DNA of 64,000 nucleotides, taken from NCBI GenBank assembly GCA_016390365.1, contig GCA_016390365.1_3043.1; one strand, 5' to 3'. Position 1 is the stretch's first letter, and each line of letters opens with the position of its first letter. Below, piece by piece: positions 22,507 through 44,646 of this stretch. The translations under genes were made by a program, and so were the position numbers. The notes under the pieces were generated by a model that ran no database searches, had not been told where the DNA came from, and worked only from the letters and a program-made list of their open reading frames with translations. The stretch is from a phage.

Positions 22507-22535
22507 TTTACAAAAGGGTAGTAGTGTGATACTAT
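22506..22535 (+). promoter_or_regulatory. T4 early-type promoter
   Basis: GTTTAC at 22506 and TACTAT at 22530. Confidence 0.55.
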
Positions 22536-22644
22536 TACCCTATCAAAACTAATGGAGAAAAGAAAATGTTCGCACCTTATATTATGGCAGCAGTTATGTT
22601 GGTCTGTTTATATCTTTTGATTAAAGCTTGCTAAGGAGAATAAA

Positions 22645-25030: not shown

Positions 25031-26045
25031 TAATTGAGGCCTGAGTATAAGGTGACTTATACTTGTAATCTATCTAAACGGGGAAACTCTCTAGTAGACA
25101 ATCCCGTGCTAAATTGTAGGACTGCCCTTAATAAATACTTCTATATTCAAAGAGGTATTTATGAAAAGCGGAATTTATCAGATTAAAAATACTTTAAACA
25201 ATAAAGTATATGTAGGAAGTGCTAAAGATTTTGAAAAGAGATGGAAGAGGCATTTTAAAGATTTAGAAAAAGGATGCCATTCTTCTATAAAACTTCAGAG
25301 GTCTTTTAACAAACATGGTAATGTGTTTGAATGTTCTATTTTGGAAGAAATTCCATATGAGAAAGATTTGATTATTGAACGAGAAAATTTTTGGATTAAA
25401 GAGCTTAATTCTAAAATTAATGGATACAATATTGCTGATGCAACGTTTGGTGATACATGTTCTACGCATCCATTAAAAGAAGAAATTATTAAGAAACGTT
25501 CTGAAACTGTTAAAGCTAAGATGCTTAAACTTGGACCTGATGGTCGGAAAGCTCTTTACAGTAAACCCGGAAGTAAAAATGGGCGTTGGAATCCAGAAAC
25601 CCATAAGTTTTGTAAGTGCGGTGTTCGCATACAAACTTCTGTTTATACTTGTAGTAAATGCAGAAATCGTTCAGGTGAAAATAATTCATTCTTTAATCAT
25701 AAGCATTCAGACATAACTAAATCTAAAATATCAGAAAAGATGAAAGGTAAAAAGCCTAGTAATATTAAAAAGATTTCATGTGATGGGGTTATTTTTGAAT
25801 GTGCAGCAGATGCAGCTAGACATTTTAAAATTTCGTCTGGATTAGTTACTTATCGTGTAAAATCTGATAAATGGAATTGGTTCTACATAAATGCCTAACG
25901 ACTATCCCTTTGGGGAGTAGGGTCAAGTGACTCGAAACGATAGACAACTTGCTTTAACAAGTTGGAGATATAGTCTGCTCTGCATGGTGACATGTAGCTG
26001 GATATAATTCCGGGGTAAGATTAACGACCTTATCTGAACATAATG
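25031..26045 (+). mobile_element. group I self-splicing intron in td, carrying the I-TevI gene
   Basis: 5' intron sequence TAATTGAGGCCTGAGTATAAGGTGACTTATACTTGTAATCTATCTAAACGGGG matches the T4 td intron from memory; ends ..CTGAACATAATG with terminal G; rejoined exons give a 286-aa TS. Confidence 0.88.
25161..25898 (+). CDS. GIY-YIG homing endonuclease I-TevI (intron-encoded)
   Basis: 245-aa ORF inside td intron; sequence matches I-TevI (MKSGIYQIKNTLNNKVYVGSAKDFEKRWKRHF...). Confidence 0.95.
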   Translation: MKSGIYQIKNTLNNKVYVGSAKDFEKRWKRHFKDLEKGCHSSIKLQRSFNKHGNVFECSILEEIPYEKDLIIERENFWIKELNSKINGYNIADATFGDTCSTHPLKEEIIKKRSETVKAKMLKLGPDGRKALYSKPGSKNGRWNPETHKFCKCGVRIQTSVYTCSKCRNRSGENNSFFNHKHSDITKSKISEKMKGKKPSNIKKISCDGVIFECAADAARHFKISSGLVTYRVKSDKWNWFYINA

Positions 26046-30390: not shown

Positions 30391-30500
30391 AAAATGCGCC
30401 TTTAAACGGTAACGTTTATCGAAAACTCCTTTAATTGCTGGAAAGTCCTTTATAGGAAAACTAGCAGCCAAGGTTTTGCTTGCACCTTTAATTAGTATAA

Positions 30501-30508
30501 TATAAATA
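30501..30508 (+). promoter_or_regulatory. late promoter (TATAAATA) inside nrdB intron for I-TevIII
   Basis: Exact TATAAATA 28 nt upstream of the endonuclease ORF. Confidence 0.6.
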
Positions 30509-30535
30509 TGATTATACTTTTAAGAGGATGCACAA

Positions 30536-38736: not shown

Positions 38737-39072
38737 ATGTCTGAAGTACAACAGTTACCAATTCGTGCTGTCGGTGAATATGTTATTTTAGTTTCTGAAC
38801 CTGCACAAGCCGGTGATGAAGAAGTTACAGAATCAGGACTTATTATTGGTAAACGTATCCAAGGCGAAGTTCCTGAACTGTGTGTAGTTCACTCTGTCGG
38901 TCCTGATGTTCCTGAAGGTTTCTGCGAAGTTGGTGATTTGACTTCTCTCCCAGTTGGTCAAATTCGAAATGTTCCGCATCCTTTTGTAGCTCTGGGTCTT
39001 AAGCAGCCAAAAGAAATTAAACAAAAATTTGTTACCTGTCACTATAAAGCTATTCCGTGTCTTTATAAGTGA
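38737..39072 (+). CDS. 31: co-chaperonin gp31 (GroES-like)
   Basis: 111-aa ORF matching T4 gp31. Confidence 0.93.
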
Positions 39073-39219
39073 TATAAATAATAATATGAATTGGGTGTCG
39101 GAATAATAAGTTAACCGAACAATTCTATGTGGTAGTCTACAACTGAGAGATCTGTCGAAAGAAGATGAAATTCAGAAGAACGTGACTACCGAGTTTTAAT
39201 CTCTAACGAGAATTTTTAA

Positions 39220-39468
39220 ATGATTAAACAATTACAACACGCTCTTGAACTGCAACGAAACGCATGGAATAATGGTCACGAAAACTATGGCGCATCTATT
39301 GATGTTGAAGCCGAAGCTCTTGAAATCCTGCGTTATTTCAAACATCTGAATCCTGCTCAAACTGCATTAGCTGCTGAGCTTCAGGAAAAAGATGAACTTA
39401 AATATGCTAAGCCTCTGGCTTCTGCTGCACGAAAAGCAGTTCGTCATTTTGTGGTAACACTGAAGTAA
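39220..39468 (+). CDS. rIII: lysis inhibition accessory protein rIII
   Basis: 82-aa ORF; length and position match T4 rIII. Confidence 0.85.
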   Translation: MIKQLQHALELQRNAWNNGHENYGASIDVEAEALEILRYFKHLNPAQTALAAELQEKDELKYAKPLASAARKAVRHFVVTLK

Positions 39469-39864
39469 TTTATTGGAGATTCACTGCCTTAGTGTGAGCT
39501 AAATCGAGGAGCCGTCGAACTGTCTGATTAATGATTTGCGAATCATTATAGTTTTAAGACCCCGGCAGTTTTACGGTGTACCTCTTGAATGTTATTTTAT
39601 AGCGGCAAGTGCATGCTACCCCGAGGTGATGGCCAATCGGGAGTACGCCTCAAGGCCTATATATCCATCAGTATATATCTTATCCTCGAGTAATCGGACC
39701 CGGAACCTTTAAGCTAACGGTGTGCAACAGATAAGAGCTATAAGGTATGATGACGAGGTTTATGGTTATCCTGTCGGTAAATATTCAAAACCTAAGTACC
39801 CCTTTGAGGGCTTTCGCAGGCAATGCCAATAAGTCCTGCATTTTCGTTTAAAAGAGAATTTATA

Positions 39865-40041
39865 ATGGCAAAACAAGCTAAAGCAAAGAAAGCAGTTGAA
39901 AAGAAAGTTGGTGATTCTAAACGCGCTGGCTACAAGCGTGGGTCGAACTCTCGTATCAATCAAACTGTTGAGAAGATCATGCGCCGAGCACGTGCGGTTC
40001 TTCGAGATGATGCTTCTCGTTTTGGTAAGCAGAAAGCATAA
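39865..40041 (+). CDS. small basic protein
   Basis: 58 aa from ATG 39865 (MAKQAKAKKAVEKKVGDSKRAGYKRGS...) with RBS AAAGAGAATTTATA; terminator immediately downstream. Confidence 0.45.
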   Translation: MAKQAKAKKAVEKKVGDSKRAGYKRGSNSRINQTVEKIMRRARAVLRDDASRFGKQKA

Positions 40042-40046
40042 GTTGA

Positions 40047-40071
40047 GGACTCCTTCGGGAGTCCTTTTTTA
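40047..40071 (+). terminator. rho-independent terminator (CUUCGG hairpin)
   Basis: GGACTCCTTCGGGAGTCC followed by TTTTTTATTTT. Confidence 0.75.
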
Positions 40072-40094
40072 TTTTCCAAAGATTGCACAAAGTT

Positions 40095-44431: not shown

Positions 44432-44452
44432 AGGCCTTCGGGCCTTTAATTT
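44431..44452 (+). terminator. terminator-like CUUCGG hairpin before alt late promoter
   Basis: AAGGCCTTCGGGCCTT followed by TAATTTT. Confidence 0.55.
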
Positions 44453-44460
44453 TATAAATA
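44453..44460 (+). promoter_or_regulatory. late promoter (TATAAATA) upstream of alt
   Basis: Exact TATAAATA immediately after a terminator hairpin, 20 nt before RBS GAGAGG. Confidence 0.65.
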
Positions 44461-44646
44461 GAATAAACACTAGAGAGGATATGATGGAACTTATTTGACG
44501 AAGATACTACTCTTCCAATTACAAACTTAAATCCAAAGAAGAAAATACCGCAAATTTTTTCAGTTCATGTTGATGATGCAATTGAACAACCAGGCTTTCG
44601 TTTATGTACCTATACATCTGGAGGTGATACTAATCGCGATTTAAAA

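Follow-up and report, generated by a model that had tools for sequence, protein, structure and literature searches.

A structured RNA carried between rIII and 30.9 in T4-like phages of Enterobacterales

What does a T4-like phage keep in a stretch of almost 400 base pairs (bp) in which no credible protein can be read? The question is raised by a stretch of phage DNA of 64,000 nucleotides (nt) (contig GCA_016390365.1_3043.1 of GenBank assembly GCA_016390365.1; hereafter the window), in which the genes rIII and 30.9 are separated by a gap of 396 bp at positions 39469–39864. The source phage is T4-like and belongs to the genus Tequatrovirus, its closest records being vB_Eco_Geo, ACG-C40 and slur03 (97–98.5% identity over 1.9 kilobases (kb)). 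A preliminary description of the window had set the gap between the rIII stop at 39468 and the next start at 39865, which proved right, and had proposed that it holds a structured non-coding RNA, the remnant of a decayed gene such as a homing endonuclease, or a protein-binding or packaging site. The first of these proposals is strongly supported by compensatory base changes, for the central ~147 nt only. The existence of this RNA is close to certain, and its standing as a new family of phage structured RNA is well supported. We further propose, with a probability of about 0.55, that positions 39597–39743 of the plus strand form a self-contained non-coding RNA domain with tertiary structure, which serves as an autonomous accessory module and binds a conserved partner.

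The rIII–30.9 gap of T4 is also non-coding and spans 244 bp; aligned with T4, the window has ~150 extra bases in the middle of the gap, inserted between ...CTTGAATGT and ATGATGACG... A BLASTN search with the gap matched 996 phage records, in which either no feature or short hypothetical open reading frames (ORFs) are annotated at this place, and a BLAST search with the insert alone matched 408 phage records. In a first alignment of 23 distinct copies, which was made by MAFFT and not fitted to structure, the stem sequences differ among genera yet remain complementary. When a structure was drawn by hand on this alignment, 95% of the cells were paired and 17 of the 33 pairs were compensated, with shifted-partner controls giving 23–44%. 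The covariance model built on the MAFFT alignment, R1, gave a second alignment of 37 distinct sequences, in which 97.4% of the cells were paired and 34 of the 41 pairs compensated; none of 500 shuffles reached this level, and shifted partners gave 28–39%. From the 37-sequence alignment, RNAalifold independently recovered the helices P1, P2, P3, P4 and P5, and additionally predicted P1b (GGC/GCC) and a longer P6, both variable pairs of which are compensated. Compensatory changes in a comparative alignment are the evidence that the preliminary description had named as a check. Within the 64-kb window R1 has a single match (39587–39750, 190 bits).

The paired columns hold 27 G-U cells against 7 A-C cells, indicating that the sense (plus) strand, which is also the strand of rIII and 30.9, is the one that folds. 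As the pairing pattern is strand-specific in this way, a protein-binding or packaging site in the DNA is unlikely. The unpaired core columns have a mean identity of 96% (40 of 63 invariant), against 90.5% in the paired columns (12 of 71 invariant), a pattern that marks a tertiary or ligand-binding core. With covariation in seven helices, the kissing loop included, and 40 invariant unpaired bases, this RNA ranks among the better-supported orphan structured RNAs.

The fold consists of a four-way junction of P1, the arm P1b–internal loop–P2, P3 and P5, and the P5 arm opens into a three-way junction of P5, P4 and P6 (Table 1). With P1b paired, the four-way junction is perfect, i.e., no linker bases stand where P1, P1b, P3 and P5 meet. 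P1, which is possibly longer by three weak pairs (to 39594/39746), is wholly different in sequence among genera (UAAAC/GUUUA, UAUAAGC/GCUUAUA, GUAGUAG/CUACUAU), and P1b varies at one position only, where C is replaced by U and pairing is preserved as U-G. All nine counted pairs of P2 were changed on both sides, with 99.7% of the cells paired, and RNAalifold adds a tenth, invariant pair (G39615–C39648). The 3' strand of P5 directly abuts P1, and the Slopekvirus version of P5 reads CCGUG/CACGG. The P4 loop is mostly GAAA or GUAA, but UAAA and UAAU also occur, as do UUUA or an A plus seven U in Slopekvirus; the loop is therefore not strictly GNRA. P6 has been compensated from A-U to U-A in Cronus and from C-G to U-A in Slopekvirus, and encloses the conserved loop GAACC-(variable)-AGCUAA (39703–39717), into the variable centre of which an extra hairpin is inserted in EcS1. 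In the strand joining P6 to P5, GCAAC is invariant in all homologues, and the sixth base is A, except for G in the Slopekvirus copies. We rejected a helix between UGCAU, on the 5' side of the internal loop, and GUGCA, on the 3' side of P6, as it leaves uncompensated changes and the change in Cronus is accounted for by P6. By inspection, the internal loop matches no K-turn or loop-E consensus.

The two hairpin loops L2 and L3 are joined by a helix of their own. All 10 distinct L2/L3 combinations form six Watson-Crick pairs, whereas loops taken from mismatched lineages average 3.6. This kissing helix exists in five sequence versions (CGAUGG/CCAUCG, UGAUGG/CCAUCA, CUAUGG/CCAUAG, CAAUGA/UCAUUG and UGCAUU/AAUGCA), and five of its six pairs are compensated in the 37-sequence alignment. 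The covariance model did not include the kissing helix, so the L2–L3 pairing cannot be an artefact of how the sequences were aligned. A helix within L2 (GGY/GCC), drawn first, was superseded by it.

Table 1. The RNA, its helices and the surrounding features of the window
Feature	Position	Strand	Basis or remark
Core structured RNA, P1 5' strand to P1 3' strand	39597–39743 (~147 nt)	+	Covariance model, covariation, RNAalifold
P1 closing helix, UUAUAGC / GCUAUAA	39597–39603 / 39737–39743	+	6/6 counted pairs changed on both sides
P1b, GGC / GCC	39604–39606 / 39655–39657	+	Single-sequence centroid fold and RNAalifold; weak support
Internal-loop strand AAGUGCAU, opposite CUCAAG (39649–39654)	39607–39614	+	(Nearly) invariant columns, alignments A3 and A5
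P2 hairpin with A and C bulges; loop L2 39625–39636	39615–39624 / 39637–39648	+	Covariation
Kissing helix UGAUGG (L2) / CCAUCA (L3), 6 bp	39627–39632 with 39665–39670	+	Covariation
P3 hairpin; loop L3 39664–39671	39658–39663 / 39672–39677	+	100% of cells paired; 4/6 pairs compensated
P5, UCUUAUC / GAUAAGA	39678–39684 / 39730–39736	+	99.2% paired; 5/7 pairs compensated
P4 hairpin UCGA-GUAA-UCGG, loop GUAA	39686–39689 / 39694–39697	+	4/4 pairs compensated
P6, U39721 bulged	39698–39702 / 39718–39723	+	RNAalifold, two independent compensations
Junction strand GCAACA between P6 and P5	39724–39729	+	Conservation
5' flank (segment A), including the 8-bp hairpin 39529–39548	39469–39596	+	Near-identical to T4; little variation
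Accessory hairpin module (ii), stem GAC.AGG/CCUGUC, loop with GGUUAUC, flanks GAUG / CGUAAA-like	39749–39781	+	
Accessory hairpin module (iii), GUACCC-(3–7 nt)-GGGCUUG	39796–39814	+	Adjoins the RNA 5' or 3' in most genera
Hairpin GCAGG...CCUGC, then AUUUUCGUUU, just upstream of the 30.9 ribosome-binding site	39817–39849	+	Read from sequence
gp31	38737–39072	+	
Late-promoter motif TATAAATA (T4-type octamer), upstream of rIII	39073–39080	+	Sequence
rIII, 82 amino acids, gene upstream of the RNA	39220–39468	+	ORF aligned with rIII of eight phages; agrees with T4 annotation
gp30.9 homologue, gene downstream of the RNA, ATG at 39865	39865–40041	+	phrog_1427 match, E = 2e-31; T4 annotation
Strong terminator after the gp30.9 homologue	40045–40075		Terminator scan

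The carriers, ~400 genomes, are T4-like phages of Enterobacterales in which the RNA lies nearly always between rIII and 30.9. Eight genera were confirmed from the records (Tequatrovirus, Karamvirus, Jiaodavirus, Marfavirus, Moonvirus, Roskildevirus, Kagamiyamavirus and Muldoonvirus), and in those the RNA always occupies this position; the hosts of the carriers are Escherichia, Klebsiella, Enterobacter, Serratia, Erwinia and Yersinia. The insert is ~95% identical between the Tequatrovirus of the window and Jiaodavirus phages of Klebsiella, the flanking intergenic DNA of which cannot be aligned with the window and the RIII protein of which is only ~76% identical. A diverged copy (79–87 bits), reached through a short BLAST match, is found at a different locus in Slopekvirus, and much of the covariation comes from it. 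There the RNA lies downstream of uvsY and small ORFs, at the 3' end of the uvsY operon, and the next ~150–190 nt, which are poor in ORFs, contain hairpins and a bidirectional terminator and face a convergent helicase gene; downstream of the copy there is neither a 30.9 homologue nor an annotated gene. The RNA is therefore not tied to 30.9. In Slopekvirus K41P2, the motif CATAAATA (positions 1383–1390 of locus L066), a seven-out-of-eight match to the T4 late-promoter consensus, stops 5 nt short of P1 and would start a transcript right at the RNA, although this lead is uncertain, the motif being weaker and not conserved in the related Slopekvirus locus L068.

Even among close relatives the RNA comes and goes. 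T4 lacks exactly the unit bounded by P1, yet has the same 30.9 translation start region, and R1 found no match at E ≤ 1 over the whole T4 genome. Four states are seen at the insertion point (39596/39744): nothing in T4, a cassette of 45–50 nt in slur02 and RB69, a larger deletion in EO1, and the RNA in the window. The cassette, UACUAUCAUGCGUCAGAAAAGUGUUAUCUGUGUAAGUCUUGG... (slur02, ~427–472 of locus L176; RB69, ~395–450 of locus L177), is non-coding and unrelated to the RNA, and the same hairpin, U-rich tail and 30.9 start region are kept in T4, slur02, RB69, EO1 and the window. Four allele states at one point make the insertion point a hotspot for the exchange of small non-coding cassettes. 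The RNA is thus accessory, being present, absent or replaced among close relatives, and portable, being found at two loci. Beyond the carriers, a search guided by RIII gave 15 rIII loci, and the RNA was present in none of the nine further loci scanned with R1, including those of Aeh1-size phages. Anchored pattern scans of viral contigs (IMG/VR) and metagenomes found it in T4-like phages only, among the matches listed, with the loosest scan returning mostly noise. Copies in bacteria were considered and discarded, as five genome-contig matches to a 19-base pattern (18 specified bases and one N) are attributable to chance and were rejected by R1; a BLAST search against 5,426 E. coli genomes gave no match.

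How might such an RNA work? Its transcription would be in the sense direction, within the rIII–30.9 message, and would go on throughout infection. The octamer TATAAATA upstream of rIII is the T4 late-promoter consensus, and the terminator scan called no strong terminator before 40045; the octamer is the probable source of late transcripts running through the RNA. A sigma-70 scan found no promoter-like match within the gap. Transcription of rIII in T4 starts at early, middle and late promoters (PMC9409239). The RNA may then behave as an autonomous module, closed by P1, movable between loci and dispensable, whose conserved single-stranded core would recognise a single conserved partner; this could be a protein or a small molecule and could belong to the phage or to its Enterobacterales host. 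The likeliest role would be an accessory one in host interaction (e.g., decoy, sponge or inhibitor), control of the neighbouring gene being less likely. We favour the role of decoy or inhibitor because a patchy, cassette-like distribution is typical of host-directed accessory functions of phages. Autonomy is moderately supported, by the Slopekvirus context, by the absence or replacement of the P1-bounded unit in close relatives, and by differences among genera in the distance from the RNA to 30.9 and in how the small flanking hairpins are ordered.

Several points weigh against this proposal. Release from the message, action in trans and the partner are all putative. The homologues are closely related and come from one phage group, so that many compensatory cells go back to a small number of events; in addition, the nested helices were used in fitting alignment A5. 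Taken singly, the sequence has an ordinary minimum free energy (z = -0.69), so the case rests on comparative evidence, and the support for P1b is weak because its bases are nearly invariant. In ~400 genomes, moreover, the RNA stands upstream of 30.9, the usual position of a cis-regulator, and the hairpin at 39817–39849 with its U-rich tail could serve as an expression platform.

The last two points lead to the rival that survives best, although we regard it as unlikely: a cis-acting leader or riboswitch, in which the fold would sense a ligand or protein and control read-through or translation of 30.9. The great majority of carriers have the RNA upstream of 30.9, with the hairpin and AUUUUCGUUU placed between it and the 30.9 ribosome-binding site. 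The architecture is aptamer-like, in that P1 closes a junction of several helices, two of the loops make contact, the junction bases are invariant and the stems covary; a conserved fold closed by P1, as in riboswitches, is indeed present (covarying P1–P6, invariant junction core). Nevertheless, the copies do not hold a consistent leader position, those of Slopekvirus standing at the 3' end of the uvsY operon before non-coding hairpins and a terminator, and even in front of 30.9 the distance from P1 and the intervening content vary and have been rearranged among genera. The hairpin, its U-tail and the start region of 30.9 are also retained where the RNA is missing, in T4, RB69 and slur02, and we saw no competing partner for the P1 3' strand. 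Since phrog_1427, the family matched by gp30.9, is of unknown function, it gives no clue to a ligand.

Returning to the autonomous module, it is tempting to go one step further, albeit tentatively, and to imagine a new class of RNA used against hosts, possibly a kissing homodimer whose core would neutralise a conserved Enterobacterales factor or signal in counter-defence or takeover, or possibly a catalytic RNA. Catalysis also figures in a second rival, which we consider improbable: the RNA may be a processing or stability element of a polycistronic message. As such it could be a self-cleaving ribozyme of a new kind, or a fold that resists nucleases or insulates and would uncouple the fates of upstream and downstream segments. 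The RNA lies directly 3' of an ORF in both contexts (rIII, and the small ORFs after uvsY), the small stable hairpins that accompany it could mark transcript ends, and the compactness of the fold, its kissing loop and its invariant core would all suit a catalytic RNA. On the other hand, no known self-cleaving class matches at E ≤ 10, forty invariant unpaired bases far exceed the needs of a simple stabiliser, and T4 runs the same operon without the RNA.

About as doubtful is the idea that the L2–L3 pairing is intermolecular and that the RNA acts as an assembly, i.e., as a homodimer joined by two reciprocal kissing helices or as higher oligomers. The L2–L3 covariation is equally compatible with pairing within and between molecules. 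The arms are very unequal in length, P1b, the internal loop and a 10-bp P2 on one side and a 6-bp P3 on the other, so that on geometric grounds an intramolecular kiss would need a sharp bend, whereas an antiparallel dimer would close without one. Hairpins adjacent at a junction commonly kiss intramolecularly, however, as in purine and lysine riboswitches, which counts against self-association, and the large conserved internal loop could provide the bend. Precedents for an RNA assembly are the phi29 pRNA rings and the homo-oligomers of OLE, ROOL and GOLLD, and natural homo-oligomeric RNAs joined by kissing loops are documented (PMC12286853). The neighbours of our RNA are rIII and 30.9 or uvsY and uvsW, with no linkage to packaging genes, and there is no Rfam match to pRNA.

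That the locus holds no RNA gene at all, but a decayed protein gene such as a homing-endonuclease remnant, a DNA-level site or a miniature mobile element, is very improbable: presence, absence or replacement at one exact point and the second locus in Slopekvirus are the behaviour of mobile DNA, and some GenBank records annotate short ORFs across the RNA, but the indels are not multiples of three, the paired substitutions track base pairing and not codons, compensatory changes in seven helices together with the one-strand G-U excess indicate selection on a single-stranded transcript, and we saw neither inverted terminal repeats other than P1, nor a clear target-site duplication, nor any enzyme associated with the RNA. 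The ORFs of the gap are all short (58, 36 and 34 amino acids on the plus strand; 65 on the minus strand, at 39766–39963), none of them matches a PHROG family at E ≤ 1, and indels break them in other genera. The preliminary view that the gap has no credible ORF therefore stands; the accompanying suggestion of a decayed gene or homing-endonuclease remnant finds no protein-family match and is not supported. Many GenBank genomes annotate hypothetical ORFs over the RNA, e.g., three ORFs of 31–38 amino acids over and around it in Klebsiella phage 15882-3-5, and '1,4-alpha-glucan branching enzyme' is the name given to the region in two records; such annotations are almost certainly wrong.

Could the RNA belong to a family already described? 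When the element, the 1.4 kb around it, its two flanks, the Slopekvirus copy and the whole window were scanned against Rfam 15 (4227 models), nothing relevant was found, so that the Rfam scan suggested in the preliminary description gave no match. Specifically, the 1.4 kb gave no match within the element at E ≤ 10, the 171-nt element alone gave one chance match of 11.8 bits, the Slopekvirus copy gave weak matches far below threshold, and the whole window gave none at gathering scores. The RNA is therefore not a known family, and no description of it was found in the literature searched, coverage of which was incomplete. A SAM-I riboswitch was considered on account of the words CUUAUC...GAUAAG, CCCGG.AACC and GCUAA, and was rejected, as SAM-I, SAM-IV and SAM-I/IV gave no match at E ≤ 10; by eye, the common words stand in a different order and in different structural roles from those in the SAM-I consensus. 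Also rejected were (i) a group I intron or homing endonuclease (no Rfam intron match, no PHROG match for the gap ORFs), (ii) the known self-cleaving ribozymes (no hammerhead, twister, twister-sister, hatchet, pistol, HDV-like or hairpin match at E ≤ 10), (iii) a phi29-type pRNA (no Rfam match, no linkage to packaging genes), and (iv) T4 rnaC/rnaD, since R1 run unfiltered over the T4 tRNA–rnaC region gave no match above 8 bits, the best one lying elsewhere in the locus. A likeness to the helix 27 region of 16S ribosomal RNA, seen by eye in the 9-mer GGGAGUACG and several 6-mers, was dismissed, as chance alone predicts ~0.9 shared 9-mers for sequences of these lengths (147 and 1542 nt) and BLAST found nothing. 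In the flank at 39491–39518, an RNA anti-CRISPR was entertained because 18 of 28 bases match, by eye, a type I-F repeat; the stem is broken, and the Rfam CRISPR-DR models gave no match in 39465–39600 at E ≤ 10.

Around the RNA, the gap carries smaller structured elements. The inverted repeat to which the preliminary description had drawn attention is real, a perfect 8-bp hairpin of TAATGATT (39529–39536), the loop TGCG and AATCATTA (39541–39548), and lies outside the conserved RNA in a Tequatrovirus-specific flank; this flank, segment A, is specific to Tequatrovirus together with Mosigvirus and cannot be aligned with Jiaodavirus and other genera. Module (ii), which is kept in T4, is upstream of the RNA in some genera and downstream in others. 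Its stem varies by genus (GAC.AGG/CCUGUC, GUGG/CCAC, GUCGUAG/CUAGAC), with the loop GUUGUWGGUYAUC and the flanks GAUG...CGUAAA conserved, and it was located in relatives at L002 ~2430–2465, L004 ~1160–1195 and L006 ~1318–1350. Module (iii), which might mark the end of the RNA or a processing site, is immediately 3' of the RNA or 41 nt downstream at the Slopekvirus loci, and in relatives it was seen at L066 1554–1571, L002 ~2643–2660 and L006 ~1127–1144. The hairpin at 39817–39849, conserved in T4, RB69 and slur02, was not called by the terminator scan because its loop exceeds 8 nt, and it bears a weak resemblance to the phage DUF2815 RNA motif of Rfam, far below threshold (14.9 bits, E = 1.9).

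The preliminary description had called the composition of the gap atypically high in guanine plus cytosine (GC). The GC fraction is raised (0.422 against a window mean of 0.361), but only modestly, at the 92.5th percentile among windows of the same size, and the excess is concentrated in 39597–39743 (0.469), the two flanks of the gap standing at 0.398 and 0.388. Upstream, the gp31–rIII gap (39073–39219, 147 bp) is ORF-free and harbours the octamer TATAAATA. Further stretches of 138–215 bp without an ORF of at least 50 amino acids on either strand are found at 44432–44646, 22507–22644, 25899–26042 and 30393–30535, and ARAGORN detected no transfer RNA (tRNA) or transfer-messenger RNA within the window.

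Few viruses have been studied as thoroughly as the T-even phages, which now find wide therapeutic use against E. coli, Klebsiella and Enterobacter; that this RNA is missing from Rfam and from the literature searched is probably because the model phage T4 lacks it. At ~147 nt it is small enough for direct structural and biochemical study, and near-isogenic phages with presence, absence and replacement alleles are a ready-made genetic test. Its partner, once found, could reveal a new RNA-based manipulation of hosts by phages, and would also correct spurious ORF annotations in hundreds of GenBank records.

Known RNAs resemble the phage RNA in different ways. The purine and lysine riboswitches share with it the closing P1, a conserved unpaired junction, covarying stems, neighbouring hairpins joined in a loop-loop helix and a place that is usually upstream of a gene; unlike them, the phage RNA has no match to any Rfam 15 riboswitch, possesses a second domain (P5–P4–P6) and, in its Slopekvirus copies, is upstream of no gene. 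The hairpin and twister-sister ribozymes, to which Rfam gives no match and whose cleavage sites have no recognisable counterpart motif in the phage RNA, are alike in their perfect four-way junction, the arms of which carry conserved internal loops that could dock on each other. The T4 species 1 and 2 RNAs (rnaC and rnaD) are also small, stable-looking, non-coding RNAs of unknown function in T-even phages, but lie in the tRNA cluster and have no covariance-model similarity, and T4 has rnaC yet lacks the phage RNA. Finally, GOLLD, ROOL and phi29 pRNA differ in that GOLLD and ROOL measure 600–800 nt against ~147 nt, and the phage RNA has no Rfam match and does not lie beside tRNAs or packaging genes; like it, they are phage-borne, highly structured and non-coding, make kissing-loop contacts, and are patchy or dispensable among relatives.

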